The notes beneath the pieces were generated by a model. It was given only the letters and a program-made list of their open reading frames with translations. It did no database searches and was not told where the DNA came from. Below are positions 41,857 through 58,405 of a stretch of DNA of 64,000 bases, one piece after another. Location of the stretch: contig OY729426.1 of the NCBI GenBank assembly GCA_963422365.1, forward strand, positions 896,001 through 960,000, given 5' to 3'. The position numbers and the translations under genes were made by a program. Origin of the DNA: Nitrospirales bacterium (GTDB lineage: Bacteria; Nitrospirota; Nitrospiria; Nitrospirales; UBA8639). The first letter of the stretch is position 1; every line of letters begins with the position of its first letter.

Positions 41857-43833
41857 CTACAGATGTGGATTGACCGGAAGAGCGAGGGTAAAGTATCGGC
41901 CCTTATCCTCGACCAGGAGGCGTTTGTCCACAAGGGTAGCGATCGCAGCATCAAGGGAGGTTGCCGAGGTGAACGCCGATGGATCGTCGGTTGAAGCCCG
42001 CCGGATTTGCTTGAGCGTTTTCGGGGCCTCATTGCAAGACTCAAGGAGAAACGAAAAGGGCCAATCAAACCGTTCGCTCGTGGGGTGAGCGGTACGGCCA
42101 TCGTAGACGGTCACGTAACTCATGGCCTTCGAATAGAACAGGAACGGGCGGTCTTGAGAGAAATATCGAGCCCGCCATTCTTGCACGAGATCGAATAACT
42201 GGTCGTAGAGGGCCGGCTCCACCTTCCAATCAATCTCATATTCGAAATCATACGCGATTTTGTTCAGGTTCACGGTCTTCGCATCATACACGTATTCGTA
42301 AGCCGCTCCCGGTCCGGTAATACGCACGCCGTATTCTTCGGGACGCATGAAATACGGGCTGAATCGTTCCAGCCACAGTTTGCCGGTGCTTTCGGGTGGT
42401 TGGAGGTGAAACAGTGAGGGAATAAGTGCGATCTGGCGTTGGTAGTCCTCGTTGGTTTCTTGTGGAAAGCCCAGAAGAATATTCCAGTTGAGATCCAAAT
42501 TGTAATAGCGGCTCCATTTCAAGCACTGAATGTTTTGGAGCGGGCTGACGCCTTTCTCCATTTCCTTGAGTTGCGCGGCGCTCAGGCTTTCAATGCCGGG
42601 CTGCATGCACGTCACCCCGCCTTGGGCAAGGGTTTGAATGTGCTGCTTGGTCAAGTTGGCTTTGGTCTCCATGAACACGTCCAGGTCATAATGACCGGCG
42701 GCGAATCGACCGAACAAATTGTCGATATATGTCAAATCGATGATGTTATCGACCAGCCGAAAGCGTGTGGTGTTATAGCGACTGGAGAGGCCATCCATTT
42801 CTTTGGCCACTTGCTCGGAAGACTTGGCGCGAAACTTCATGGCCTGCGCATTTAACCCACAAAAGGTGCAATGATGTTTTTCGCCCCACCAGCACCCGCG
42901 TGATCCTTCGTAGAGCAAAATCCGATTGAGCCCGGTAGCTCCCTGCCCTTCCAGCTCTCGAACCATTTCAAAATAATCGTCGTAATCCGGTGGCCCGACT
43001 TCGGGAAAATTAGAAAAAAGTGTCGCGTTGGGTTGGAAGTGAATCTGCCTGTCTTTGCGGTAGGCCACCCCGGCCGGGAACGCGTCTTCCTGACGGCGAA
43101 GAATGTTCTTGACCAAAACGGGAAACACGTCTTCGCCCTCGCCGACCACGACGTAATCAATCCAGGGAAACGCCCGGAAATGTTCCAAGCCCATCTCCCC
43201 GTCAAAGTTGGCTCCGCCAAAGACGATGCGAACAGAGGGATACAACTCTTTAATCAATTTGGCCAGGGTCAGGCTCGCCACGTTTTGGTCAAAGGTGGAC
43301 GTCAAACCAACGACTTTGAATTGATCCCAGTCGTACGAGGTCAACAGCTCGGTGAGAAATTGTGGCGCGATGGCGTGGGCGATCTCTTCGAGATACCCCG
43401 TGGAACATCCCGCCTCCTGAGACGTGCTTTCAAACACCGGCTTGAAGACATCGGGATACTGGGCATGCTTCGGGTTGTCTCGAAAGAGAATCGACGAGAA
43501 CAACCACTCTCCGATCATGCCACGTTTTTCGCACAACACTTCGTAGAGCGGGAGACCAATGCGCTGGGCAAAAAGCAAATTAAAGTGATAACACTTGGAC
43601 CCGATGCCATGGTTCTTCAACACCCGAGACAGCGTGCCTAGCTGAATAGAGGGGAATTTGGAATACCCGAACGGCATGGTGACCAAGGCCACCTGCGGGA
43701 CGCCGTTCGGATCGACCCAGGGTTCTTCTTCGAGCGCAGGGCCGGCTTGAGAAACCGGAAAGCCTGTCCCCGACGAGTGTCCCTGACCTGATCGGGGATC
43801 GAATCGGGGAATGGTGATGAGTGGATCAGCCAT
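41857..43833 (-). CDS. B12-binding radical SAM enzyme, RiPP maturation C-methyltransferase type (TIGR03975-like)
   Basis: MPF..PSIQLG, GLTSTFDQN, FGGANFDGEMG, GEGE cobalamin domain, GSRGCWWGEKHHCTFCGLN (CX7CX2C), QPGIES, ERFSPYF. Confidence 0.88.
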   Translation of the reverse strand: MADPLITIPRFDPRSGQGHSSGTGFPVSQAGPALEEEPWVDPNGVPQVALVTMPFGYSKFPSIQLGTLSRVLKNHGIGSKCYHFNLLFAQRIGLPLYEVLCEKRGMIGEWLFSSILFRDNPKHAQYPDVFKPVFESTSQEAGCSTGYLEEIAHAIAPQFLTELLTSYDWDQFKVVGLTSTFDQNVASLTLAKLIKELYPSVRIVFGGANFDGEMGLEHFRAFPWIDYVVVGEGEDVFPVLVKNILRRQEDAFPAGVAYRKDRQIHFQPNATLFSNFPEVGPPDYDDYFEMVRELEGQGATGLNRILLYEGSRGCWWGEKHHCTFCGLNAQAMKFRAKSSEQVAKEMDGLSSRYNTTRFRLVDNIIDLTYIDNLFGRFAAGHYDLDVFMETKANLTKQHIQTLAQGGVTCMQPGIESLSAAQLKEMEKGVSPLQNIQCLKWSRYYNLDLNWNILLGFPQETNEDYQRQIALIPSLFHLQPPESTGKLWLERFSPYFMRPEEYGVRITGPGAAYEYVYDAKTVNLNKIAYDFEYEIDWKVEPALYDQLFDLVQEWRARYFSQDRPFLFYSKAMSYVTVYDGRTAHPTSERFDWPFSFLLESCNEAPKTLKQIRRASTDDPSAFTSATSLDAAIATLVDKRLLVEDKGRYFTLALPVNPHL

Positions 43834-44164
43834 TGCCGTTGAAGACGCGATCGACCTTGGCCGCGAGATAAAAATCGCTTTCCGTGAGCCCGTGAATTTT
43901 ATGCGACCAGATTTCTACTTTACACCGCCCCCACGTGAGATACAGATCGGGATGATGGCCCTCCTCCTCGGCAATCGTGCCGACGGTGTTCACAAAAGCC
44001 AGGGCGGCGGCAAAGTCGGGAAATTCGTACAGGCATTCGATATGGCCGTCGGCATTCAAGCCCCAGCCTTGGTCTAATTGGCCCAACAACTCCTGCACTT
44101 TCACCGGTTCCAGCGGCGGCACCCCGCCGCGGCACGGCACGCATTGATGATCAGCTAAACTCAT
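43826..44164 (-). CDS. phhB: Pterin-4-alpha-carbinolamine dehydratase
   Basis: CVPCRGG, AEEEGHHPDL, WSHKIHGLTESDFYLAAK. Confidence 0.9.
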   Translation of the reverse strand: MSLADHQCVPCRGGVPPLEPVKVQELLGQLDQGWGLNADGHIECLYEFPDFAAALAFVNTVGTIAEEEGHHPDLYLTWGRCKVEIWSHKIHGLTESDFYLAAKVDRVFNGNG

Positions 44165-44186
44165 GAACGTCCCCTCCGGTTATCTC

Positions 44187-44231
44187 ACTCATTGGTCTCC
44201 TCTCCCATCATGGGAGAGGAGACCAATGAGT
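44187..44231. repeat. Perfect 22-bp inverted repeat (45-bp palindrome)
   Basis: ACTCATTGGTCTCCTCTCCCAT-C-ATGGGAGAGGAGACCAATGAGT. Confidence 0.9.
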
Positions 44232-44680
44232 ATAGTCATCAGCAAAGAATTATAGACTTCCACAATGACAAGGCACAAATCTTTGCCCGATCAATAATGC
44301 AAAAAACTTCTTGGCCTTGATCTAGGAAACTATGGCATACTTGCCAAATTCACCCTGCTGTCTGATGGAATCACCTTGGGAGAAGGAGGTGTACCATGGG
44401 CCAAACCAAAGCGATCGTGAAGGATGGGATCATGACTCATCAAAAAATTCAAGATACGTCAGTCACCATTCTATTGCCATCCTGGTGGTGAATAACTTCC
44501 ATTGACGTACCAAAGGGTACACCATATGTCAGGGACAATTATGCAAAGCATCGCCATCCTTGCTGAGATGGGTGAGCGGAACATACGTGAAAGAAAACGG
44601 TTTGCCTCATCGCGCTCTCACAAGTAAGATACGGCTCTATTCTACCGGCTCCATTCGATGCCACGACACGTAGAGACAGC

Positions 44681-45869
44681 ATGTTCGCTCGAATCATAAC
44701 TACCCCCCCCCCCCCCCTCAGAAAAATCGCCTGAGCTGACGATCCTGATCCTCTGCCGCGACGAGGAGAAGTCCATCGCCCGCTGCGTCGGCGAAGCCAG
44801 AGGGTTCCTGAACAGACACGCTATCGCCGGGGAGGTCCTGGTGGTGGACAACGCCAGCCGGGACCGCTCCGCGGAATTTGCGGAAGAGGCCGGCGCCCGC
44901 GTCGTTCAGGAGTCGCGGGCAGGCTACGGCAACGCGGTCAACGCCGGCATCCGAGCCGCCCGCGGCCGGCTCATCATCCTCGGCGATGGAGACGGGGAGC
45001 ACGACCTCGGCGCGCTGGCGCCGTTCTGGGAGAAGCTGCAAGGCGGCTGCGACTTCGTGTTCGGCAACCGCTTCGCCGGCGGCATCGAGGACGGCGCGAT
45101 GTCGTTCCTGCACCGACATGTGGGCAATCCGCTACTGTCGGGCCTCGGCAGGCTGTTCTTCCGCACGCCTGTGGGCGACTTCCATTGCGGCTTGCGGGGA
45201 TTCAAAGCCGCAAGCGTCCGCGCCCTCGCGCTGCAATGTCCGGGACACGAAGCGACGAGCGAGGTGGTCGTCAAGGCAGTGCGCAAGAACATGCGCATCG
45301 CCGAGGCGCCGGTCGTGCAACGCCGCGCCTTCGACCCCGACCGTTCTTCGCATTTGCGCACCTGGCGCGACGGCTGGCGCCATTTGTGCCTGCTGCTCAT
45401 GCTCTCCCCCCGCTGGTTGTTTCTCCATCCAGGCTACGCGTTGCTGGCGGCGGGCCTGGCCGCCATGGCCGCGCCGTTTCTGATTCCCGCCGGGTTCGGC
45501 GTCTACACCATGCTGTTCGGTTCGGCGTTCATCATCTGCGGCGTTCAGTTGGCGGCGTTCCACCTGTTGGCGCACATGTTCGGCGACACCATCGGCTTCA
45601 CTGACGGACGGCTATGGAACTGGGTGCGGCAACGCCGGATTCTGGAGCCCTGCCTCGCCGCAGGCTGCGCGCTGGCCCTGGTGGGCGTGGCGGGAAGCGT
45701 CTGGAGCCTGTTCGTCTGGGCGCAGACCGGCCCTGCGGAGATCGAGACGCGCCTGGCCGTCGCCATCCCCTCCGCCGCGCTGCTGGTCGTGGGCGTGCAG
45801 ACGATGTTCTTCGGCTTCCTGCTGGCGCTGCTCGCGACACAAGGGGCCGGAGCGAGAGTCGAGTCCTGA
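44681..45869 (+). pseudogene. GT2 polyprenol-phosphate glycosyltransferase (GtrB/ArnC/DPM-synthase-like), frameshifted at a C15 tract
   Basis: The GT2 frame reads SEKSPELTILILCRDEE...EVLVVDNASRD, GYGNA, GDGDG, DFHCGLRGF, SHLRTWRDGWRHL plus C-terminal TMs. The in-frame TAA at 44697 precedes the tract. ATG 44681 would be in frame with C14 or C17. Confidence 0.8.
44703..44717 (+). repeat. Homopolymeric C15 tract at the GT2 5' end
   Basis: Directly visible: ta-C15-tcag. Confidence 0.9.
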
Positions 45870-45904
45870 TATTGTCCCGGCTTGACGGAAAGTGCCTGGC
45901 TCTG

Positions 45905-47796
45905 ATGCTCCGCTCTCTCGGGGTATATACCGCAGTCCTCATTCTGGGCACGGGTTTCTTCTTCTTTCTGCACCACATCGGTAACGGGCTTCATTACGAG
46001 CAGGCGAAGCAACGGTTCTCCGACGACATCGCAGCGAATTTACCGAATACCTACGTTGGGTACGTCTCCCGTTTCAATAGTGCATTCACATACTGTCAGA
46101 TATCGCTGGCGGTGATAGAGGAGCGTGGTGGCAGGAAAAGTCCGACGGCAATCGTCCCTTGGTGGATGCCGTGCTGCCAATAACGTTCGCGAAAGAGATA
46201 GCGCCCGATTCGAACTATTGCGCCGAGGTCGAAGCTGTATCCGGTGGCGCGGTTCTCGGTACGTACCGGTTCAAGCCTCGATATTGGTGGGGTAGCAAGG
46301 CGATCTTCGCCATCGCACTGCGCTATCTGTCCATTATCGAGTTCTACCATATCATCTCGCTCATGACCTATGGAGCCTACTTTCTGCTTGCCAGTGCTCT
46401 GTTGTTGATCGGCTGGAGGACACTGCTGGTCACTGCTCCCTTGATAGTATTCGGTGCATTCTTCTCCGGCATCCGATATTTTTTAGGTGTGGAAAACGGC
46501 ATCCCGTATCTATGGGCAGTGCTGGCGGCGACTATCCTGACTCTGCTTCTGTGGCGGCACGGATCCGCGCGGGCGGCACCGCTGTTCTGCTTCACTGCGG
46601 GGATGGTGTCGTCCTATTTGTGGCTGTTCGATGGACACAACTTCCTTGCCATCGCGCTGATTGGGCTGATTGGCTGGCTCGGACACGAGCGCCTGAACAC
46701 ACGTGACCGGGTTCGACGAGTGAGTAGTTACCTTCTGCTTTACGCTGTCGGATTTATCCTTTGCTTCGCGGCGAACCAGGTAACCAAGACGGTCGTGTAT
46801 GAACAGGCAATCGTTGGCGGGAGCAATTATTTTGGCGGGGGCGTAGCAACGCATTTATTTAGTCAAGTTCTTTACCATTTGGAACGAATTTTCTCCCCTG
46901 AAGACAGGGATTTATATGGTCGGAGCATAGTCACCTTTTGGGGACTGTCACTGTCGTCAATCAGGCCGACAGTGGGCATCGCTCTGACCGGCCTTTCCGC
47001 GCTGGCGCTACTTGGAGCAGGATTCTTCGCCAGATATCAGGCGCGGCGCGGACACCCCGAGCTTGCCCGGAACATCCTGTGGATTGTCGGCATCATGCTG
47101 CTGGCCTGTGTCAATTTCTTACAACCCAATGACCTTCCTTATCGGGTCTCGCGGATCATGTTCGTGCCCCTCGCCCTTTGCTGGTCGTGCCTTATCCTGG
47201 CCGTTATGGATGCCGCGATTCCCCGATGGATTGTTCGCATTGCGGACCGACTCCCGTGGCGCAACCGACTGCTGCAAAGTGTCAACTGGCGCCATGCGAC
47301 CTGGGCCGGTCTTTTCCTGTTTGCGACGGCACTGTATTGGCACAATCCGCCGATACTGATCCTGCCAGACCGCAACACCGACGAAGGTCGGAGCCGGGAA
47401 AGGACGTTCTTGTTGGAGGCCGATGAGATTCGTTCCTCATACCAGCAATTCATGGTCGGCGAGCCGATTATACGCGCCGACTTCGATGTGTATCACAACA
47501 AGGGCAGTCTGTTGTACGTCAAAGAGAAGTGCACCGACGCTGATGCTGCCCCGCGCTTCTCCCTGCATGTCTTTCCGGTTGACCAGGATAACTTGCCTGC
47601 ATCCCGCTGGCCATATGGCTTCGACAACCTGGACTTTTTCTTCGACGAATACGGGTTTCGGCACGACGGGCGATGCGTCGTGGGGCGCAATCTCCCCGAC
47701 TATCGAATCGCCCGCATCCGCACCAGCCAATTCACCGCTGAGGGACAGCTATGGAAGGGCGAGCACCGCTTTGGCGGGAAGGATGCAACGCCATGA
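45905..47796 (+). pseudogene. Multi-TM membrane protein (possible GT-C-like) with C-terminal conserved two-Cys module, one frameshift near 46080-46180
   Basis: ATG 45905 frame (MLRSLG..YCQISLAV) continues in the 46159 frame (..KPRYWWG..SSYLWLFDGH..). Ends in the module EPIIRADFDVY..C..FDNLDF..GRC..LPDY.I.RIRT.QF. Confidence 0.65.
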
Positions 47797-48044
47797 GGCG
47801 CTTCGGGATTGACGGGTTCACCGCACTCTTGGCGGCAATCGGGGCGCTGGCCCTGGCGGGCGCGGCGGGAGGCGTCTGGAGCCTGTTCGTCTGGGTGCAG
47901 ACCGGCCCTGCAGCCATCGAGACGCGCCTGACCGTCACCATCCCCTCCGTCGCCATGCTGGTCGTCGGCCTCCAGACGATGTTCTCCGGCTTCCTGCTGG
48001 CGCTGCTCGCGACACAAGGAGCGGGAACGAGAGGCGAGTCCTGA
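47793..48044 (+). pseudogene. Chimeric ORF: first 20 codons of the 49774 GT-C gene fused to a copy of the GT2 C-terminus
   Basis: MRRFGIDGFTALLAAIGALA is identical to the start of the 49774 gene. The rest aligns to the GT2 end (VWSLFVW.QTGPA.IETRL...LLATQGAG..ES). Junction at GCGCTGGCC. Confidence 0.8.
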
Positions 48045-48076
48045 CGCTGCCCCGGCTTGACGGAAAGTTCCTGGAT

Positions 48077-49777
48077 TTGTGGAGTTTGACTTTAGTGCTA
48101 CCGAGTAGAACCGCTGCCGCCCCACTGCGTTTCCCGAGCATGCATGGCGTTGATTCGCCGGCCTCCGCCGTCAGACATCTCATTGTCTGCCTGCACGTAC
48201 TCTTCTTCAGCTACCTCACAATCAACCACCCGTGGCTCTACAAAGCGCTGACCATGGAGGATTACTGGGTGGAGAACACCACCGCCGGCCTGTTTCTTCT
48301 CACAGGCCTCTTGCTGTTCGCCACGGCTTGGGCGGAGAAGGGTGTTTTCCACCGCTGCCTCTATATCCTTGGCGGCTTGGTGATGGTGTTCGTCGCGGGC
48401 GAGGAGATCAGTTGGGGGCAGCGCCTGATCGGATTTGCGACTCCGGATGCCCTGATGGACATCAATGCTCAGGAAGAGTTCAATCTTCACAATATCGACA
48501 TCAATCTATTCTATCTCATACAGCTTTACGGATCGTTGGGTCTGTGCGTTGCAGCGTGCGCCGCCTATTTCGCCAGGAAGACCGCACTGTTCGGGATTCC
48601 CCTGCCGTCCATTTGGATAGCGTTGGGCTCTCTCGTGCTGTTGTCATGTACGTGGGATCCGAGAATTGGCGAGGGCGAGGCCTATCCTGTCTTCAGGGAC
48701 AGACACTTTCTGCTGCCGATCCTCTCCATCGCGCTGCTGATTATTTTCATCTGCTCCCTCTTTCGCAGACAAGGAAAGCTGGTCGTCGCCGCTGTTGTCA
48801 CCGTGGCGACCGTTCTGACCAGTTTGTATGTGAACGCCCATCAACCCATCATTCAAGAAGGAGTCAACGAAACACGGGAATATCTGCTGGGCCTTCTCTG
48901 CCTTTTCTATTCCTGGGAACTGTTTTCGGTTCAGCCGCGGTGGAGGACAGCCTTGCCGGCTGCGCTCCCCGTTCTGGCGCTTCGGGACATTCGACTCCCC
49001 ATCTGGCATGGCACGGCTTGGCTGATCGTCGGCGGCGGCATCGCATTGGCATCCTGGCAACATTTCTTGATCAAGACAGACGCTGCCTTGATCGGTGACG
49101 GACGCGAACCAATCATTCGTTCCCGATTTGATGTTTACTCGAGCGAGCGCCGCTTGATATTCGTCAAGGAAGCGTGCCGATCCGAGGATATCGGCAGGCT
49201 GATCTTCCTGCAAATGGCCGGGGCCGGGGAGCGTGGCGCCAATCTCTACTTCGCCGTCCCACGGGCCAGATTGACGGACGATGGCCGATGCATCGTTGGC
49301 CTCAACCTTCCCTACGACATCACCCGAATCAGAACCGGCTGGCACACCCCTGAAAGAGGTATATGGAAAGAGATATGGGACAAGTGGTTCTTGTTCGATG
49401 TCGCCGATCTTAGCTCATCCTATCAGCAAGCCACGGCTGGCGAACCGATCGTCAGCTCCCACTTCGACGTATACCGCCACGAAGACAGGCTGATATACCT
49501 CAAGGAACAGTGCACGGAGACAGACACCGAGCCGCCCTTCTTTTTGCACCTCATCCCGGTTGACGCGGCCGACTTTCCCGACCACCGGCGACAATACGAT
49601 TTCGACAACATGGACTTCCACTTCGGTCCCTACGGATCTGTGGACGATGGGCGCTGCGTGGCGACGCGCCGTCTTCCCAGCTACGCCATCGCCGCCATCC
49701 GCACCGGCCAATTCACCGCTGAGGGGCAGCTATGGAAGGGCGAGCACCGTTTTGGCGTGGCGGATGTAACGCCATGA
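48077..49777 (+). CDS. Uncharacterised membrane protein (EEISWGQR motif) with two C-terminal two-Cys modules
   Basis: EDYWVEN, FVAGEEISWGQRL, NAQEEFNLHN, multiple TMs, modules starting near 49106 and 49442. Start uncertain. Confidence 0.75.
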   Translation: MWSLTLVLPSRTAAAPLRFPSMHGVDSPASAVRHLIVCLHVLFFSYLTINHPWLYKALTMEDYWVENTTAGLFLLTGLLLFATAWAEKGVFHRCLYILGGLVMVFVAGEEISWGQRLIGFATPDALMDINAQEEFNLHNIDINLFYLIQLYGSLGLCVAACAAYFARKTALFGIPLPSIWIALGSLVLLSCTWDPRIGEGEAYPVFRDRHFLLPILSIALLIIFICSLFRRQGKLVVAAVVTVATVLTSLYVNAHQPIIQEGVNETREYLLGLLCLFYSWELFSVQPRWRTALPAALPVLALRDIRLPIWHGTAWLIVGGGIALASWQHFLIKTDAALIGDGREPIIRSRFDVYSSERRLIFVKEACRSEDIGRLIFLQMAGAGERGANLYFAVPRARLTDDGRCIVGLNLPYDITRIRTGWHTPERGIWKEIWDKWFLFDVADLSSSYQQATAGEPIVSSHFDVYRHEDRLIYLKEQCTETDTEPPFFLHLIPVDAADFPDHRRQYDFDNMDFHFGPYGSVDDGRCVATRRLPSYAIAAIRTGQFTAEGQLWKGEHRFGVADVTP

Positions 49778-52089
49778 GACGCTTCGGGATTGACGGGTTC
49801 ACCGCACTCTTGGCGGCAATCGGGGCGCTGGCCGGCGGGCTCGTCCTGTTGCGCACGAATAACTACGGGGCAGCGATAGCAGGAGATTCCCTTCTCTATC
49901 TCTCTGTGGCGGAAAATCTGCTGGATGGAAACAGCTTCGTCGCATGGCACACTAAGAGAATCTACCTGGATGGGGCGCCCCTGTTTCCGCTGGCGGTGGC
50001 TGGAGTCGGCCTGTTAGGCGTGGAGGTTCTCGAAGCCGCCCGGTACCTGAACGCCGCCGCCTTCGGGCTGACCGTCTTCGTGACCGCGATGTGGCTGCGC
50101 TGCCGCGTCGCACCACACTTTCTGGTCCTTTGGTCCGCCTGTGCCTGCGCTCTGTCCGTGTCTCTGTCCACCAGCGCCGCATCGGTCATGACGGAGACTC
50201 TTTTCCTCCTGTTCGCCACGCTCTCGCTGTTCAGCTTGGATCGCTTCCTGGATACGCGTCAGAAGTGGCTGCTGCTCACGGCGGGCCTTTGCGCGGGTTT
50301 GGCGTGGGCGACCCGCTACATCGGCGTCACCGTCGTGGCCAGCGCCCTGCTTCTGTTGCTGTTGCAGGGCAGGACGGCGTTCCCCACCAGGATAAGGTAC
50401 GCCGCCCTCTTCGCTATCATTGCCGGGGCGCCCGTGGGCCTGTGGATGCTGCGCAACGTTCTGCACACGGGTATGCCGTTGGGCGTTGTGTACCCGACAG
50501 GCTTCTCCCTGCTGTCCAGTCTCCATGTTGCCAGTGATGAGTTTATCGAATGGATGATTGGGGAGAACGCGTTTCGTTTTTTAGGCGCCAGGCTCGCCGA
50601 AATTGTAGCTGGCATCACCGAAGGGGGCGAGATTGTCTTCATGTCGTTGAAGGTCGGTTTCCTGCTGGCGGTGGCATCCGGTGTCATCTATGCGCTGATA
50701 CGCCTGCGTCGACGAGGTTACGCGCAAAGCTGGAGCATATGGGCCGTCCCCGTCGCCTTCGCATCCATCTATGGGGTTTTCCTTACGTTTCACCTGCCGC
50801 TTATCGATGTGAACCTCCCTCCAAGGTATCTCGCGCCGCTCTATGTGCCGTTGCTGGTGGCGGCAACATTGTTTCTGAACGAGGTCCTGCGTTGCGCCGC
50901 CCCTGCGCGTTCGTTGGCAATGCCATCCTTCCTGCGGAAATGGAGCGGCGGGGCCAAAACGATTGCAAACGGACCTGCACTCGCCCTGACGGCCTGTCTG
51001 TCGCTCTGGCTCTTCTCGCATTCGTACGCAAACTATAGTGACATACGACATTGGGTGAACAACGGTTACGGCTACGCATCCAGGCAATGGCGAGATTCCA
51101 GCACCATCCGCTATTTGGACAATTACCTGCACGATGAAGATGTCTGGAGCAACAACGCTACCTCAATTCAATTCCTGTTGGATGCGCCCGGCCGGAACAG
51201 CAACAAGCTGCCTTACGCCAGGCCGACGCCGGACAACTTGCGCCGCTGGCTGGGCATCGACGGCTGGATCCGCCAGTTCGATCCGTACATCGTCTGGTTC
51301 CATGGCGTGAACGAAGCGCGTTACGACTACGACCTTGCGGAGCTCGCTGCGCTGCCCGGCGTGCAGGTGGAGGCGGTTCTGGAAGACGGCGTCGTGTTCA
51401 AAGCCGTGGGGCCGCGCATCGGCTTCCACGTGTCCTATGACAAAAACGAGAACAAGCTGATCTATGTCAGGGAAAATTGCCGCGCGGAGGACCTCGAAGC
51501 ACCGGTCTTCCTGCGCGTCTTCCCGATGGACAAGGCCGACCTGCCCGACAGCCGCCGCCGTTACGGTTCCGACAACCTCGATTTTCATCTCGGCAGAAGA
51601 GTTTCATACTTGGACGGACGATGCGTTGCGGAGCGCGATCTCCCCGACTACGCCATCGCCCGTATGGACACCGGCCAATACACTGCCGAAGGGCGGATAT
51701 GGAGGGTATGGCTCCACCCTTCCGACGACGCCGAGCGCCGTCCGTCGTACCAGCAAATCATGGCTGACGGACCGATTATCCGCGCCGACTTCGACATGTA
51801 CCTGGACGACTACAGCCTGATTTACGTCAAGGAAGGATGCCGCGCGGAGGACCTCGACGCCCCTGTCTTTCTGCACGTCTTCCCGATGGACAAGGCCGAC
51901 CTGCCCGACAGCCGCCGCCGTGACGGTTTCGAACACCTCGATTTTCATCTCGTCAGAAGAGTTTTATACCTGGACGGAAGATGCATTGCGGTGCGTGATC
52001 TTCCCGACTATCCCATTGGCCGCATCCACACTGGCCAGTTCATACAAGGTCAAGGCAGGCTGTGGACGAGTGAATTCAGTCCCGATTGA
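49774..52089 (+). CDS. GT-C fold (PMT_2/ArnT-like) membrane glycosyltransferase with periplasmic domain and two two-Cys modules
   Basis: DSLLYLSVAENL..G, APLFPL, TETLF, TRYIG, PRYLAPLY, many TMs. ATGA overlap with the upstream gene. Confidence 0.78.
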   Translation: MRRFGIDGFTALLAAIGALAGGLVLLRTNNYGAAIAGDSLLYLSVAENLLDGNSFVAWHTKRIYLDGAPLFPLAVAGVGLLGVEVLEAARYLNAAAFGLTVFVTAMWLRCRVAPHFLVLWSACACALSVSLSTSAASVMTETLFLLFATLSLFSLDRFLDTRQKWLLLTAGLCAGLAWATRYIGVTVVASALLLLLLQGRTAFPTRIRYAALFAIIAGAPVGLWMLRNVLHTGMPLGVVYPTGFSLLSSLHVASDEFIEWMIGENAFRFLGARLAEIVAGITEGGEIVFMSLKVGFLLAVASGVIYALIRLRRRGYAQSWSIWAVPVAFASIYGVFLTFHLPLIDVNLPPRYLAPLYVPLLVAATLFLNEVLRCAAPARSLAMPSFLRKWSGGAKTIANGPALALTACLSLWLFSHSYANYSDIRHWVNNGYGYASRQWRDSSTIRYLDNYLHDEDVWSNNATSIQFLLDAPGRNSNKLPYARPTPDNLRRWLGIDGWIRQFDPYIVWFHGVNEARYDYDLAELAALPGVQVEAVLEDGVVFKAVGPRIGFHVSYDKNENKLIYVRENCRAEDLEAPVFLRVFPMDKADLPDSRRRYGSDNLDFHLGRRVSYLDGRCVAERDLPDYAIARMDTGQYTAEGRIWRVWLHPSDDAERRPSYQQIMADGPIIRADFDMYLDDYSLIYVKEGCRAEDLDAPVFLHVFPMDKADLPDSRRRDGFEHLDFHLVRRVLYLDGRCIAVRDLPDYPIGRIHTGQFIQGQGRLWTSEFSPD

Positions 52090-52136
52090 TGGACAGTCTC
52101 ATCGTGACCAAACCCCAAGCCGCAGCGTGAAATGCC

Positions 52137-52511
52137 ATGAAGCCCGCTGATTATTTCTATCTGCTTCTGGCGCCCGTACTGCTGTCCGCCGGACAGGTCC
52201 TGTTTAAGAAAACGGCGGACGCGGCGGTCACGCATTCGCTGTCCCGATTTCTCGGCTCGCTGCTCGCCAGCCCGCACTTCTGGGCCGCCCTTTTCATTTA
52301 CGGCGCGGCGACGCTTTTGTGGGTGTTCACGCTGTCCCGCGTGCCGCTCGGCCGGGCCATGCCCTTCGTCGCCCTGACCTTCGTCATCGTGCCATTGATT
52401 GGCGCGGCGTTCTTCGGCGAGCGGCTGAACCTTCTGTACTGGCTGGGCGTCTGCGTCATCGTCATCGGCGTTTGCATGACGGTCGCGGCTCAGGCCGCGG
52501 CCGCAAGATAG
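52137..52511 (+). CDS. Small EamA/SMR-like transporter (ArnE/F-like undecaprenyl-phosphate-sugar flippase candidate)
   Basis: 124 aa, 4 TMs, GQVLFK, LW...LSRVPL..A.PF, FFGERL, W.G...I..GV. Confidence 0.8.
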   Translation: MKPADYFYLLLAPVLLSAGQVLFKKTADAAVTHSLSRFLGSLLASPHFWAALFIYGAATLLWVFTLSRVPLGRAMPFVALTFVIVPLIGAAFFGERLNLLYWLGVCVIVIGVCMTVAAQAAAAR

Positions 52512-52710
52512 CGAGCTTTGCGCGCGGACGGATTCGAAATCATGCAATGGTGCGGGCTTGCTTGGTGCCTGACGCTTCTGGCGCTGGCGGTTACTTTCGG
52601 CGCGCTCTGTGCTTTCTTCCATTGGCGAACGATTTTGATGGTGACGGTGAGAAGGGATAAAGCCGTCTACGAGCTTGCAGGGCGGCGATTGGGTATAGTA
52701 TGGCTTTGAT

Positions 52711-55068
52711 ATGGTCCTGGAATCGCCCTCAATGGAAATGCGTAGGCACCGTCCCACATTGACGAAGATGGCGCACAGGGTTCTCGTTGTCTTTATCCTC
52801 TCGAAATGTGCTGCACTCGACGTAATGGCGCAGCCGGCATTCAAGCTTGAACCGATCGCCGATGGCGCGGCATTCGCGAAACGGGCCGATCTGGCCCCGG
52901 GCGACACCCTCGAACTGGCCGTCCATGCAAAGAACGCCCGCCGCCTAACCTTCCAGATAGAGCGAATCGGGCGGAAATATGAGCACCAGCCCGCGGAACA
53001 CTGTTATGACGGGATCGGCGGGGATGCCATAGCGGATTATCCGGTTCAGATAGGTTGCCCTTCCAGCCATATACGGAGAGGCTGGTTCAACTGCCGTTCA
53101 TGCAACGGCGTATGGCTTGCGTCCGTGAACAGCGACGCTGAATGCCGATGGTTCATGCTGCGGCTACCGCAGCCCGCCAAGTTACCAGCCCTACACGCCC
53201 CCCCAAGTCCCTTACCCCCACTTTCCCTAATGGCAGGCCCACAGCCCGCGCCGGTGATTCAGGAATTCCGCGGCAACCGCTATGTGTCGTTTGCCACGTG
53301 GGAATACAACGTTAAGGTGCCCATTCCGGAAGACTGGCCAAATGGCTTCTACAGATTCGTTGTGTTCTCTCCCAATGGAGCCGTGCAAGAAAGGGTACCG
53401 TTCCATGTTGAGAACCTATCCAAGCCGGCGGCGGTATGCTTCGTGTCCTCTCACCTGACTGCGGCGGCGTACAATACAGCCTTTGGAGCGAGCCTTTACA
53501 AAGGGTTCGACGGGGATGCGTACCAGTCCAAGTTGCGAGCTTCCGCCGTCACCATGCAGCGGCCGCGAAGCGCCTATTATTCCCATATCTGGCCGGCTGT
53601 GAAATTTATCGAACGTTTGGATGTACCAATCCGCTATACAACGACCCTGGCGGTTCACAAAGACCCGACCTTGCTCGATGGGTGCCGCGCTATCGTTCTA
53701 GCCTTTCATCCCGAGTACATATCGGCCCGGCTGCGTAATGCCATTGTGGAGGCCATCGAGCGGGGTGTGCATCTGTTGTCCTTCTCCGCCAATGCCTTCT
53801 ACTGGCGGGTGGAGTTGGATCAAGACGCCTACGGCCACGACATCATGATCCTTGATAGGGCTGGCGGCGATCAGTGGAGAAACCAGGGCACTTTATTCAG
53901 CGAACAAAACATCTTCGGAGCCCAGTATATAAGTGGCGCCTGGGGCGGCGAACCTATGCCCTTTGTTGTGGAACCCCGTATGGGCGCCCATGAAACGCCG
54001 GACCCGGGACTTATGTCACATTGGATATTCGAGGGCACGGGATTGCGTTTCGGAGACAGAATCGCCGACCTAATGAGCGGGGAGGTTGACTCGCTTGATC
54101 CGTCCTTCCCTGTTCCTGACGTGCAGGAGCAGATTGTGTTCCTCTCCCCTTACTACAATCATGAAGGAAAAGAGTTCATGGCGCACACGTCGTACTTCAT
54201 GCGCCCGAGCGGCCAGATGACTTTTCATTCGGCGTCGTTGCGGTTCCAGCACGCCTTGGCGTCCGCAAAGGAACCGGAAAGGAAAATCCAGCGGATGATC
54301 AAGAATATCCTGAGGAAGATGCTGCATCCGGACGACGGACTCATATCCAAAAGCAGCAGCAAGGATTCGCACACCTTCCGCTATGCCAAGTCTCATCTGC
54401 ACGACGGCCGTATCTGGAGCAATCGCAGCGATATGTCCTATTTCCCGATGTATATAAGGGAAAAGGTTTACTCACTGCCGACATCTCTACCGTATCCGGA
54501 CGACGTGTGTCGCTGGGTCGGCTGTGGCGCCACAGGATCTAATGTCTATCTCGTCTGGTTCTACGAGGCAGAAACGTCACGTTACGAATACGGACCCAAG
54601 GAGCTTGCCGCATCGTTGCCCGGCATGCAGGTCGAGGCGACTCTGGAGGATGGAATCATATTCAAGATCAGCAAGGATTCATGCAACAATACGGAACATC
54701 TGGATAAAAAGACAATTCTGGAGACTATCGGCGAGGACGCCCGACTGCTTACCCGCTCTGACTTTGATGTGTATCAGGACAAGAACGAAAACAGGCTGAT
54801 TTACGTCCGGGAGGAATGTGGCGGCGAAGATAGTCGCCCTGAATTTTTTCTGCACATCTTCCCCGTGAACAGAGCAGACCTCCCTGCAGAGCGCCGCCGC
54901 TTTACTTATGACAATTTGGATTTTTGCTTCGATTATCACGGGTTTCATGACGGTGCGCGTTGCGTGGCGGTGCGTGATCTTCCCGACTATCCCATTGCCC
55001 GCATCCGAACCGGCCAGTTCATACAGGGTCAAGGCAGACTGTGGACGAGTGAATTCAATCCCGATTGA
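52711..55068 (+). CDS. N,N-dimethylformamidase beta-subunit-like domain fused to a GT-C-type periplasmic tail and a two-Cys module
   Basis: T..AYN..GASLY, VTMQRP, HPEY, FSANAFYWRVE, HWIFEGTGL..GD..GEVD. The tail is paralogous to the 49774 gene. Confidence 0.7.
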   Translation: MVLESPSMEMRRHRPTLTKMAHRVLVVFILSKCAALDVMAQPAFKLEPIADGAAFAKRADLAPGDTLELAVHAKNARRLTFQIERIGRKYEHQPAEHCYDGIGGDAIADYPVQIGCPSSHIRRGWFNCRSCNGVWLASVNSDAECRWFMLRLPQPAKLPALHAPPSPLPPLSLMAGPQPAPVIQEFRGNRYVSFATWEYNVKVPIPEDWPNGFYRFVVFSPNGAVQERVPFHVENLSKPAAVCFVSSHLTAAAYNTAFGASLYKGFDGDAYQSKLRASAVTMQRPRSAYYSHIWPAVKFIERLDVPIRYTTTLAVHKDPTLLDGCRAIVLAFHPEYISARLRNAIVEAIERGVHLLSFSANAFYWRVELDQDAYGHDIMILDRAGGDQWRNQGTLFSEQNIFGAQYISGAWGGEPMPFVVEPRMGAHETPDPGLMSHWIFEGTGLRFGDRIADLMSGEVDSLDPSFPVPDVQEQIVFLSPYYNHEGKEFMAHTSYFMRPSGQMTFHSASLRFQHALASAKEPERKIQRMIKNILRKMLHPDDGLISKSSSKDSHTFRYAKSHLHDGRIWSNRSDMSYFPMYIREKVYSLPTSLPYPDDVCRWVGCGATGSNVYLVWFYEAETSRYEYGPKELAASLPGMQVEATLEDGIIFKISKDSCNNTEHLDKKTILETIGEDARLLTRSDFDVYQDKNENRLIYVREECGGEDSRPEFFLHIFPVNRADLPAERRRFTYDNLDFCFDYHGFHDGARCVAVRDLPDYPIARIRTGQFIQGQGRLWTSEFNPD

Positions 55069-55115: not shown

Positions 55116-55483
55116 ATGAAGCCCGCCGATTACTTTTATCTGCTTCTGGTGCCTGTGCTGTTGTCCGCCAGACAGGTATTGTTCAAGAAAACAGCGGACG
55201 CGGCGGTCACGCATTCGCTGTCCCGGTTTCTCGGTTCGCTGCTCGCTAGTCCGCACTTCCGGGTCGCCCGTGCGTGTACGGCGCGGCGACATTGCTGTGG
55301 GTGTTCATGTTGTCCCGGGCGCCGCTCAGCCGGGCGATGCCCTTCATCGCCCTGACCTTCGTTATCGTTCCGGCGGTCGGCGTGGCGTTCTTCGGCGAAC
55401 GGCTGAATTTCATGTACTGGCTCGGTGTCTGCGTCATCGTCATCGGCGTTTGCATGACGGTCGCGGCTCAGGGTTCGCGGTGA
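55116..55483 (+). pseudogene. Second copy of the EamA/SMR-like transporter, frameshifted
   Basis: Near-identical to 52137-52511 but with a net 1-nt deletion near 55260-55277 that splits it into two ORFs. Confidence 0.85.
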
Positions 55484-55559
55484 GGGCATGAGGATGACAG
55501 GATCTGCATCGGGCAACCTGGCGCTCGGCGTTCTGGGCGAGGCGCTTGTCCTGTTGCGG

Positions 55560-56890
55560 GAAGTCAACTGCGGCGCCGAGGGCGACTACCGCTGCGTGTA
55601 CGCAAATGTCGAAGCCGGGCAGACAGGTCGTGAGGATGCGGGCGATTCTCAGCGAACTGGCGTTGCAGGCCTGGGTGGGGCTTCGGGATGAATTCCTGGA
55701 CCTGGTCTGGTTCGACATATTGGAACAGTCGGGACCCGATGGCGCACTGAGGGAAATCCTGAGCCGCTGCTCTCAGGCTGACCCGCGCTCCCTGGTGCTG
55801 CTCATCGACGAGATTGATGCTTTGATTGGCGACACCCTGCTGTCCGTGCTGCGCCAACTGCGGCTGCGTCCGGCGAGTTTTCCGTAAAGTATCATCTTGT
55901 GCGGGGTGCGCGACTACCGCATCCATTCCAGCGCCGAACAGGCCATCATCGACGGTGGCAGCGCCTTCAACATCAAAGCCGCGTCCTTACGCCTTGGCGA
56001 TTTCTCAGAGAGGGAAGTGCGTGCGCTGCTTGTCCAACATACCGAGGAAACAGGCCAGGCGTTTACCGAGGAGGCCTTGAAGGATGAACAGCCATGGCTG
56101 GTCAACGCACTCGGCTCTCAGACCTGTTTTGAGAGCAACGCCGGTCACGGTCGAGGCCGTCACCAAAGCGCGGGAAGAACTCATCCTGCGCCGCGAGACG
56201 CATCTGGACCAGCTCACGGACAAGCTGCAAGAAGACAGGGTACGGCGGGTGGTTGAACCCTTGTTGAGCGGAGGCGACGAGCGCGACTTCTTTGCCCACG
56301 ACCTGGAGTAGGTTCGCGACCTGGGCCTTATCGCGATAGACTCACCGCTGCGCATTGCCAATCTCATCTATGCGGAAGTCGTGCCATGGGATCTCGCCTA
56401 TGCTGCTCAGGAAGGATTTGTGGAGGACACCGCTTGGTATGTGAACACCGATGGCGGTCTGAACGTCGAAAAGCTGTTGGCCGCCTTCCGGACATTCTTC
56501 CGCGAACACTCGGAGCACTAGGTAGCCCGCTTCGACTACCAGGAGGCCGGGCCACAATTATTGTTGCAGGCGTTCCTGCAACGGATTGTGAACGGCGGCG
56601 GGCGTATAGAGCGGCAATATGGTCTGGGTCGAAAACGCACTGATCTGTTAATCATCTGGCCACAAGGTGAACGCACGCGCAAGTTCGTGGTCGAGTGCAA
56701 GGTTTTGCATAAGAGCCTGGAGCACATTATTCGCGCCGGGCTTGAGCAGACCGCCGACTACATGGATCTCTGTGCAGAGGCTGGGCACCTGATTATCTTC
56801 GATCTTGGCGAGGGCCGCTGGGAAGACAAGATATTCCTCCGCCACGAGTCAACCGGCACTGTTGAAATCGAGGTGTGGGGGGATGTAACG
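55560..56890 (+). pseudogene. AAA ATPase plus PD-(D/E)XK-like nuclease protein, decayed
   Basis: Fragments across frames: YRCVYANVEAGQ, Walker B LVLLIDEIDAL, LRQLR, GSAFNIKA, QPWLVNAL, RRETHLDQL, QAFLQRIVNGGGRIER.YGLGR.RTDL, VVECK. Several stops and frameshifts. Walker A region not seen. Confidence 0.75.
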
Positions 56891-56948
56891 TCCGTTACGG
56901 CACTAGGACGGATTGAGGAGCTTCCCGTAATTATGGGAATATGGTGGC

Positions 56949-57215
56949 ATGAAGACGACTATTGAACTCCATGACGCCACGTTTCGTCAGGCCAAGGCTC
57001 TTGCCGCTGACCGCGGTGTCATCTTGAAGCGGCTCTTCACCGAAGCACTTGACAACCAGTTCCACCGATGCGCGAACGAAACCCGTGCCGGCGAAACTGG
57101 GGTTACCTGGATGGCAGGGTTCTGAGCGCTATCGGGCCTCTCCGACGAGAACGGTCGTGTTCTCGATGCGATCGAGGAAGAGTTCGAGAGGCTCGACCAC
57201 GAAGACATTGCATGA
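56949..57215 (+). pseudogene. RHH/VapB-like antitoxin with internal stop
   Basis: MKTTIELHDATFRQAKALAADRGVILKRLFTEAL..WMAGF*ALS..IEEEFE. TGA at 57123. Terminal ATGA overlap but no PIN toxin follows. Confidence 0.6.
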
Positions 57216-57796
57216 TCGGGGGTTTCTTCATAGGTTTGCTTGGACTGCCGTCCGGCAGTCCAAGCAAACCTATGTCGTCGCGGCGGCGGTGCTGTTCACC
57301 TAGGGCTTGCCCATGCTGCGCGTGGCGCTGCTGGCGGCGGTCATCCTCGTCTTCTTCAGTGGCATGGATCTGCTGAAAATCTTCATCTACGAAGGATAGC
57401 CGGACGTGATTCCATTCCTATGGGAACAATGCGGTGCAAGGGGGTTTTATTCATTGGAACCGCTCCTGGGGAGTTCATCTGAATGTCCAAGGGGTGCTGC
57501 CGACCTCCATGTGGAGCCCACAACATCGCATTCCATCCGTGCTCGCGCCGTTGCTGATGATGTAGCGTCGCCGCCACCCCCGCTTTCTGGCCGACCCCGG
57601 CCTGTTCCGGCGACGCTGCTGTCCTTCTCCTCGGTCTACGGCCTTTACGACAAGACAGGGTCTCTACCGAGGTGACCTGTCTTTCCGGGATCATGCTGAC
57701 CTTTGACAGCATAGTGGTCTTCGTGCAGGAAGGCCGCTTCCGACAGTTGCGTGTCAAGTCAGGCATGGCGCTTGCTGCCCTTTATCATCCACAGGG

Positions 57797-58405
57797 CTAG
57801 GGCATGACGTCGAGTTCAGCTAAGACTTCCTCCAAGTGACCGTTCACTTTGACCTTCTGAAAGATATCATCGATTTTCCCTTGCTCATCGATAATGAACG
57901 TCGTGCGCTCGATTCCCATAAATTTCCGGCCGTACAGCGATTTTTCTTTCCACACGCCATAGGCCTGCAACATGGTCTTCTTTTCATCACTGAGCAAGGG
58001 GAAATTAAGATTGAACTTTTTCGTAAACTTTTTGTGAGATTCCACGGAATCTCCACTGACCCCCAACACCACGGCACCGCTGGTATGAATTTCATCCAAG
58101 CCATCACGAAAGGCGCAGGATTCTTTGGTGCAACCCGGAGTATCATCTTTAGGATAAAAATACAGCACGACCTTCTTCCCCTTGAAATCAGAGAGACGCA
58201 TGATTTTCCCCTCTTGATTCGGCAAGGAAAAGGCCGGTGCCTTTTGTCCTATTTTGACCTGCACCGTTGAACGTCCGGGGACGGACTTCACGGCTTTCGT
58301 CTTTTTCGCTTGACGGCTGGTGGGCGTGGTTGATTGTTCTGTTATAGGTTTTTTCGTTCCTTCGGATGCCGTTGGTTTGTTTGTTGCTTTGGTTTTGTGG
58401 GCCAC
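57797..58405 (-). CDS. bcp: Thioredoxin-dependent peroxiredoxin Bcp/PrxQ
   Basis: VLYFYPKDDTPGCTKESC, RTTFIID. Basic low-complexity N-terminal extension. Confidence 0.93.
   Translation of the reverse strand: MAHKTKATNKPTASEGTKKPITEQSTTPTSRQAKKTKAVKSVPGRSTVQVKIGQKAPAFSLPNQEGKIMRLSDFKGKKVVLYFYPKDDTPGCTKESCAFRDGLDEIHTSGAVVLGVSGDSVESHKKFTKKFNLNFPLLSDEKKTMLQAYGVWKEKSLYGRKFMGIERTTFIIDEQGKIDDIFQKVKVNGHLEEVLAELDVMP

Follow-up and report, generated by a model that had tools for sequence, protein, structure and literature searches.

Which function may be served by a domain of ~105 residues that recurs six times at the C-termini of four different proteins is the question raised by a 64,000-nt stretch from Nitrospirales bacterium (assembly GCA_963422365.1, contig OY729426.1, forward-strand positions 896,001 to 960,000), hereafter the window. 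The domain, a two-Cys C-terminal module, resides on four open reading frames (ORFs A to D), all on the plus strand, with 34–62 % pairwise identity and both Cys kept in 6/6 copies. The genome (G000; a single contig of 2.5 Mb with 53 % GC) harbours 14 copies at three loci, i.e. 8 further copies and one remnant outside the window. A hidden Markov model (HMM) built from only these 8 copies recovered the six window copies at E-values of 1e-44 to 5e-16, compared to a best E of 0.22 among 1,200 shuffles (chance control). The copies thus align significantly, and the six ~100-aa copies on four proteins described in an earlier note on this DNA were borne out, their proposed starts being off by ~25 bases at most. 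As detailed below, the module constitutes a real, large and unnamed family, predicted to be immunoglobulin (Ig)-like, on extracytoplasmic glycan-tailoring enzymes. With moderate confidence, the analysis points to an acceptor-glycan-binding domain, as in the glycosyltransferase ORF12 of family GT136, within a mobile surface-decoration kit of probable sponge symbionts.

No meaningful match to Pfam, NCBIfam or PHROGs was obtained for any of the 14 copies (best Pfam E 0.15), two module profiles found nothing among PDB sequences, and the Pfam profile for fibronectin type III (FN3) domains (PF00041) did not match the module, in agreement with the view of the earlier note that no named family is involved. 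The HMM search of wider sequence space proposed there, run against 1.84 billion representatives, yielded 2,317 proteins at E 0.001 (670 at 1e-30), each standing for a cluster at 50 % identity; partner domains were tallied, and the best 150 of the 2,317 were inspected, a selection biased to multi-copy proteins (2–10 modules). Both Cys are present in 1,281 of 1,286 distinct copies (independent E-value < 1e-5, profile positions 15–85 covered, identical copies counted once, reducing 1,325 to 1,286). No source gives a name to any module homologue among the matches listed, and a full-text search of mainly non-subscription literature, judged from listings and abstract openings, found no paper apparently describing the module. 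A DUF2491/DUF4178 label from the ESM Atlas (0.83–0.90, low recognition) was rejected because it was unsupported by any Pfam scan; summed Pfam hits on module arrays (Subtilosin_A, Rdx, Med10, Yqai) were dismissed as repeat artefacts with no single stretch passing.

The AlphaFold2 model of the terminal ORF B copy (77 rows; predicted local distance difference test, pLDDT, 94; predicted template modelling score 0.85) displays a beta sandwich in which the first Cys is followed by a short helix, and the inserted loop at residues 41–55 (15 residues) is helical. A wide structural search returned 281 chains at Z ≥ 5, those listed being nearly all Ig/FN3-like; the best matches to such domains cover 75–92 residues at a root-mean-square deviation of 2.4–3.5 and 3–15 % identity. 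Matches to carbohydrate-binding modules (CBM56, Z 6.5; CBM9, Z 6.0) tied with FN3 domains, Ig domains of glycoside hydrolases were also found, and the top Foldseek row, CBM21 at E 0.07, was generic; searched against PDB and viral models, Foldseek gave no module match at E 0.001. Since the best Z is 7.3 and none reaches 8, the predicted fold is likely an Ig/FN3-like beta sandwich at the level of class, and the matches stop short of a closest family. One Cys closes strand B and the other opens strand E; these strands neighbour each other in such folds, and the two Cys would form a disulfide. The genome encodes two thioredoxin_4 (DsbA-like) matches and one VKOR as disulfide machinery, and no DsbB match was obtained in it. 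A Leu-Pro-x-Tyr motif before strand F is reminiscent of the tyrosine corner. Of the disulfide-bonded extracytoplasmic beta domain envisaged in the earlier note, the sandwich is thus predicted with high model quality, the module follows transmembrane (TM) helices or a signal-like N-terminus, and the disulfide itself is suggested by the conserved Cys.

The carrier proteins were surveyed in 58 loci of named genomes with 173 module-bearing ORFs, of which 83 possess one module, 73 two and 17 three to seven; among the matches inspected, arrays reach 10 copies on one protein, with a repeat unit of usually 116–130 aa. Partner labels were derived from Pfam scans of 50 and 20 representatives. Among 345 long N-termini (proteins with the first module after residue 300, plus the four window proteins), 278 were assigned to GT-C glycosyltransferases (seven clusters), 30 are SGNH-like, 18 ORF B-type and 7 arylsulfotransferases. 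The GT-C assignment draws on PMT/PMT_2 hits, an acidic motif after TM1 and HHalign links; several clusters without Pfam hit were assigned by motif plus HHalign links of 85–95 %, and two small ones (10 proteins) by the motif alone. Further partners are O-antigen ligase, GtrII, GT87, sugar dehydrogenase and polysaccharide deacetylase, such that the chemistry comprises mostly GT-C glycosyltransferases and also acetyl-, sulfo- and redox enzymes. Being a non-catalytic domain appended to carbohydrate-active enzymes, the module agrees with this part of the definition of a CBM. In 168 of the 173 ORFs the module ends no more than 25 residues before the C-terminus, typically leaving a tail of a few residues. 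This placement, together with the Ig-like fold, would also suit a sorting signal resembling the C-terminal domain of type IX secretion. However, none of the 14 copies matched an NCBIfam or Pfam sorting domain, no secretion gene is common to the 58 loci, and sorting appears exceedingly improbable because most carriers are multi-pass membrane enzymes (≥6 predicted helices in 91/173) and arrays are as long as stated.

A clue to function comes from a set of seven residues (His37, Asn57, Asp59, Arg88, Arg50, Phe55 and Phe35). On average, 6.4 of the 7 are kept in single copies, 5.6 in last, 4.6 in middle and 3.7 in first copies of arrays, while 12 core residues fall merely from 11.7 to 10.6 over the same positions. 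Within arrays, the frequency of His37 declines from 87 % (last copies) through 75 % (middle) to 52 % (first), compared to 97–100 % in single copies; both Cys stay at 98–100 % throughout. Loss of His is coupled to loss of Asn57 (odds ratio 22), Gly90 (20) and Asp59 (15) and uncoupled from Leu18, Phe34, Asp10 and Asp29 (0.9–1.4); six of the seven most-decayed columns (out of 27) belong to the set. Consistently, His is found in 4/4 terminal and absent from 2/2 inner copies of the window. Judging from strand order, the set would be spread over adjacent strands of a single sheet plus the inserted loop. It resembles a ligand site that is dispensable in redundant copies, and residues of this kind would be suited to a metal or to a sugar, perhaps an anionic one.

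The same His-Asn-Asp-Arg face could alternatively bind a scaffold, a glycoprotein substrate or another enzyme, and the module would then be a protein-docking domain gathering the tailoring enzymes. It is common to unrelated enzymes, FN3-like domains often bind proteins, and five proteins with one membrane helix and 3–7 modules (P0004, P0018, P0020, P0035, P0058) are possible scaffolds. Yet the N-termini of P0004 and P0020 resemble by eye those of the full enzymes P0003 and P0072, so both may be deletion products, and no conserved scaffold candidate emerged: the commonest module-free neighbours are a short-chain dehydrogenase/reductase (SDR), a carbamoyltransferase, UbiA and a flavin adenine dinucleotide (FAD) enzyme, each in 5–8 of the 58 loci, besides one further, unlabelled cluster in 6 loci. 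A module-module homodimer prediction (score 0.00) gave no verdict and was counted neither way. Docking is considered rather unlikely. Of the three roles offered in the earlier note (docking, substrate binding or sorting), substrate binding came out best supported, by indirect means, docking into a complex found no support in the present analysis and sorting became unlikely.

The modules were shown to be under purifying selection, as judged from alignments of orthologs: the ratio of non-synonymous to synonymous substitution rates (dN/dS) is 0.26–0.57 in 11 of 12 ortholog pairs of the terminal ORF B copy and both ORF C copies (twelfth 0.89, on four changes), similar to that of the gene bodies (0.36–0.70), with the degenerate inner ORF B copy at 0.54–1.36 on few changes. 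In a further alternative, the module would bind nothing specific and be a stable disulfide-locked cap or stalk, spread as a recombination handle for cassette exchange. In its favour, the most invariant module residues are structural (Cys, Pro, Gly, Trp, Tyr), duplications in the window run through module DNA, beginning or ending there, ORF C orthologs possess 2, 5, 5, 2, 3 and 7 modules, and compared to the Pseudomonadales locus L007 the module dS departs from that of the gene body both ways (0.015 vs 0.145 and 0.50 vs 0.17); recombination at module DNA would account for all three of the latter. Against it, the polar set residues are kept in 79–100 % of single copies and lost jointly in inner ones, and many GT-C relatives of the same clusters have no module in the called ORF (16/82 and 12/35, split genes possibly among them), such that folding may do without a cap. 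A mere cap or stalk is quite improbable.

The island DNA is shared across phyla. Pieces of 1.1–4.7 kb are found in differing chromosomal settings in Gammaproteobacteria (Arenicellales locus L005, 94 % identity; Pseudomonadales L007 and L023, 92 % and 89 %), Alphaproteobacteria (Thalassobaculaceae L044, 90–93 %; Paracoccaceae L006, 88 %) and Latescibacteria (L056, 93 %). In L005, positions 6758–7460 correspond to window positions 44008–44717, i.e. ~700 bases of the left G000 flank with three mismatches stand next to the island. This flank comprises the 5′ part of a small core gene, which is present in 38/38 congeners at 76–87 % identity, and the region upstream of it. This would reflect a very recent cross-phylum transfer that took the flank along, from a donor closely akin to G000, or else a chimeric join in the assembly; the 6 % difference between the island bodies of G000 and L005 argues against simple read mixing. 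Over all loci, the closest out-of-genome match of 62 of 241 copies, at ≥80 % identity, lies in another class or phylum, a count in which groups with one genome necessarily match outside the group; for Chloroflexota, 107 of 120 copies match closest within Chloroflexota. The 31 genomes chosen as carriers contain from 4 to at least 150 copies each (scoring stopped at 150), with the highest numbers in Dehalococcoidia. Three of these (G129, G130 and G135, with loci L027, L028 and L039) have genomes of ~3.5 Mb in which the module occurs 142 to at least 150 times, which implies that each encodes GT-C paralogues by the dozen.

Carriers are rare, amounting to 5/38 congeners, 5/115 genomes of the family and 5/401 of the phylum (all of one genus), and elsewhere to 6/401 in the class of G130 (one marginal) and 1/301 in the family of G116. 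Among the congeners, 5/22 single-contig and 0/16 fragmented assemblies carry modules. Long-read bias was rejected as sole cause of the rarity, since only 5 of the 22 complete congeners are carriers; the patchiness is hence real among complete genomes, and loss in fragmented ones is possible. A mobile vehicle was sought: neither 72,556 plasmids nor 50,697 phages contained a match, and a single hit of 14 residues in viral contigs was dismissed. Most carrier lineages are among those given as sponge-typical in PMC8163846, and the carriers are, by this lineage list, probably sponge symbionts.

A module that is itself displayed or modified, as an adhesin for host matrix in monoderms or as an acceptor glycosylated by the GT-C enzymes, would be in line with copy numbers peaking (33 to at least 150) in Chloroflexota, the membrane proteins of which can face outside. 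FN3 and cadherin domains are, moreover, enriched and transferred among sponge symbionts, as stated in PMC8163846. Opposed to this, the tail of an inner-membrane enzyme should stay periplasmic in diderms such as G000, and the conserved columns contain neither a Ser/Thr-rich stretch nor a sequon. Display or modification of the module is considered very unlikely.

The window island (44.7–55.5 kb) differs in GC content from its flanks (59 % vs 53–54 %) and is ordered GT2, ORF A, ORF B, ORF C, EamA, ORF D and broken EamA (Table 1).

Table 1. Coordinates of island features and module copies in the window
Feature	Position	Strand	Remarks
GtrB-like GT2 with C-terminal membrane helices	44681..45869	+	PF00535 E 5e-16; AglJ and Dol-P-hexose transferase models below cut-off
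C15 tract	44703..44717	+	22 bases past GT2 ATG; assembled GT2 out of frame; frame would be restored with 14 or 17 C
ORF A	45866..47796	+	multi-pass membrane protein, one module; no Pfam hit; 7 predicted TM in long piece
Module copy A1	47458..47772	+	terminal in ORF A; His and Phe55 kept; Phe35 and Gly90 replaced by Ser
Duplicated GT2 3′ end	47844..48074	+	89 % to 45669–45899 (self-BLAST); preceded by copy of module end and ORF C start
ORF B	48077..49777	+	7 TM, EEISWGQR motif, two modules; uncharacterised family
Module copy B1	49103..49381	+	inner in ORF B; degenerate, without DLP..RR loop, His replaced by Gln
Module copy B2	49439..49753	+	terminal in ORF B; residue set complete; copy used for folding
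ORF C	49774..52089	+	intact GT-C (ArnT/PMT_2-like), two modules; PMT_2 E 2e-5, above cut-off in another scan
Module copy C1	51397..51720	+	inner in ORF C; His replaced by Arg, Phe55 by Ser
Module copy C2	51766..52086	+	terminal in ORF C; His kept
EamA/SMR half-transporter, ArnE/ArnF-like	52137..52511	+	PF00892 E 2e-7; ArnE E 2e-12, below cut-off
ORF D	52711..55068	+	signal-like N-terminus (one hydrophobic segment), dimethylformamidase-beta-like domain, GT-C tail, one module; PF20254 E 5e-52
Module copy D1	54739..55065	+	terminal in ORF D
Second, broken EamA copy	55116..55483	+	duplicated with preceding module, 81 % over 739 bases

From their profile matches, the GT2 protein is likely a polyprenyl-phosphate sugar synthase, and the EamA protein likely flips the lipid-linked sugar. 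By predicted fold and Asp motif, ORF C belongs to the GT-C superfamily of glycosyltransferases: its model (pLDDT 83.6) matched ArnT at a Foldseek E of 2e-8, followed by STT3, AglB, DPY19, Pmt, AftA and AftD, Asp38 (numbering starts with the Met at 49774), located in the loop following TM1, is Asp in 23/23 ungapped of 27 rows, and the Arg of the RY motif is kept in 26/27. The N-terminus of ORF A falls into the same single-linkage cluster as those of ORF C-type GT-C proteins; the gene is frameshifted near 46120–46140, as revealed by a two-frame match to P0135, P0148 and P0081. Part of ORF D was linked by HHalign to the ORF C cluster (98.4 %, 130 columns) and corresponds to the tail that GT-C enzymes of this type extend into the periplasm; in L056 the dimethylformamidase-beta-like domain is joined straight to the first helix of ORF C. 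The duplicated GT2 3′ end may be the scar of a cassette insertion. For ORF B, no Pfam, NCBIfam or PDB profile hit was obtained and the Atlas matches are hypothetical clusters; its EEISWGQR...HN membrane family (window 48140–49102; L025 11078–12217) is widespread and unannotated, and occurs with or without modules.

Donor synthase, flippase and GT-C are thus encoded in one locus, the synthase gene being out of frame as assembled, and by its gene content the island is a variant of the three-component extracytoplasmic glycosylation layout, as outlined in PMC11127046. The second module island of the genome (G000 1396837–1414395; L001 838–18396) comprises UbiA+HAD, FAD enzyme, GMC oxidoreductase and SDR genes around seven modules, the FAD enzyme and SDR presumably deserving DprE1-like or DprE1/E2 labels; its DNA is 85–94 % identical to L013 and L015 of Thalassobaculaceae.

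The GT2 gene is in frame in L005 (7 bases shorter at the tract) and L044 and out of frame in G000. Its tract measures C36 in L007, C34 in L044 and C15 in G000 and is short in L005 and L006, i.e. a 5′ coding homopolymer differs in length between strains, as in phase-variable genes. In the second island, a C22 tract is located at the start of the UbiA gene (in frame), four module genes show frame breaks and a GT-C gene is split at G10; in the module genes of G000, four other frame breaks lie away from long tracts. Enrichment of tracts of ≥14 bases near modules is modest: in G000, 2/10 are within 5 kb (p 0.016) and 1/10 within 3 kb (p 0.14), and in G116, 3/30 among those listed (p 0.007–0.02). 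Since the enrichment is modest and four breaks are not at long tracts, the C15 tract is a candidate phase-variation switch, with homopolymer error or decay as alternatives.

The island is situated at an inversion breakpoint, since the core genes bracketing it (43826–44164 and 57797–58405) have the same orientation here and are opposite and 23–32 kb apart in 4/5 congeners. Two different near-perfect palindromes of 45–46 bases flank it (44187–44231 and 57229–57274). A gene in several broken pieces (55546–56965; no Pfam or NCBIfam hit on three pieces) is similar to that of an AAA-ATPase with a nuclease tail. No integrase was recognised among the ORFs flanking the window island, nor any transposase-like ORF adjoining it; the island copies of two Alphaproteobacteria (L006, L024, L044) have such ORFs beside or inside them. 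Further genes of the window encode a B12-dependent radical S-adenosylmethionine enzyme (41857–43833; TIGR03975, C-methyltransferase of ribosomally synthesized and post-translationally modified peptides, 599 bits vs cut-off 282) and an open frame of more than 700 codons with 71 % GC, compared to 53 % for the genome (1–2118).

In the acceptor-binding reading, the module would reside outside the membrane and hold each enzyme on the surface glycan being decorated. The intact island would supply the steps: GT2 may load a sugar on polyprenyl phosphate, the EamA protein may flip it, and ORF C, with ORFs A, B and D as further tailoring enzymes, would transfer or modify sugar on the outer face. The seven-residue set is the putative binding site, usually kept by the outermost copy while inner copies would drift to spacers. 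Stretches of module DNA could also act as common homology through which copies are gained and enzyme cassettes exchanged. The gene pool concerned would be one that bacteria living together, probably as symbionts of sponges, have in common, and the poly-C/G tracts may switch island genes on and off. A precedent is the C-terminal Ig-like domain of GT136 ORF12, which, according to PMC11127046, binds the O-polysaccharide acceptor and is dispensable for catalysis.

Several observations weigh against acceptor binding. The structural matches, all below Z 8, fit non-binding FN3 domains equally, and the shared face of the set residues is read from strand order alone. The ranking of the set is descriptive, because it was picked on the same data after inspecting conservation, and the core residues likewise become poorer on the way from last to first copy (156 vs 25 arrays). 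The supposition that every array keeps one intact site was rejected: 226/292 complete arrays retain a copy having six or more of the seven set residues, below the shuffled mean of 246. No acceptor was identified that monoderm Chloroflexota and diderm carriers share. Lastly, with GT2 and ORF A frameshifted and the second-island breaks, the island may be decaying or switched off.

As it stands, a large domain family without a library name marks an accessory system that travels between phyla at 88–95 % DNA identity. Should glycan binding hold true, the module would be the first member of a new carbohydrate-binding family and would offer a small soluble probe for a surface polymer modified by up to dozens of GT-C paralogues per genome, whose display by these uncultured bacteria, and sharing among them, would become testable. 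An extension held to be improbable is that the module is a common address tag reading one sugar mark laid by the kit, within a community-wide glycan code traded by gene transfer. Any fused glycosyl-, acetyl- or sulfo-transferase or oxidase would then act on the marked glycan whether the recipient is monoderm or diderm, and a portable, switchable kit in at least nine phylum-level groups living in one host type would govern phage escape or sponge recognition.

The pathway logic is already known from the Gtr, Arn and GT136 systems. GtrABC O-antigen glucosylation and ArnC/ArnE-F/ArnT lipid A modification likewise employ a GT2 synthase, an SMR-type flippase and a GT-C, and ArnT is the best fold match of ORF C; the island differs by several GT-C and non-GT enzymes, by the absence of a phage or plasmid carrier from the collections searched, and by equivalog models that all stay below cut-off. 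FN3 and other Ig-like domains share the sandwich topology of the module, which is set apart by its two invariant Cys, the inserted loop and the lack of a Pfam FN3 hit. Several beta-sandwich modules on a GT-C are likewise known from mycobacterial AftD and EmbA/B/C, some having a polar and aromatic site and one a reduced site (bioRxiv 10.1101/2019.12.22.885152); the AftD modules, however, pack into one body instead of forming C-terminal tandem repeats. The module has no PDB sequence match, and AftD and Emb chains are absent among its fold matches listed. Closest is the GT136 pentofuranose system of Citrobacter youngae (ORF12/ORF14/ORF15), which according to PMC11127046 exhibits the same layout of lipid-donor synthase, flippase and GT-C, a GT-C with Asp after TM1, RY motif and C-terminal Ig-like domain, and the UbiA+HAD synthase type also encoded in the second island. 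Its flippase is of the MATE type, whereas that of the window island is of the EamA/SMR type, and, compared by description, ORF12 carries one domain of ~150 aa on one enzyme, whereas the present module of ~105 aa with two Cys occurs in 1–10 copies on many unrelated enzymes.

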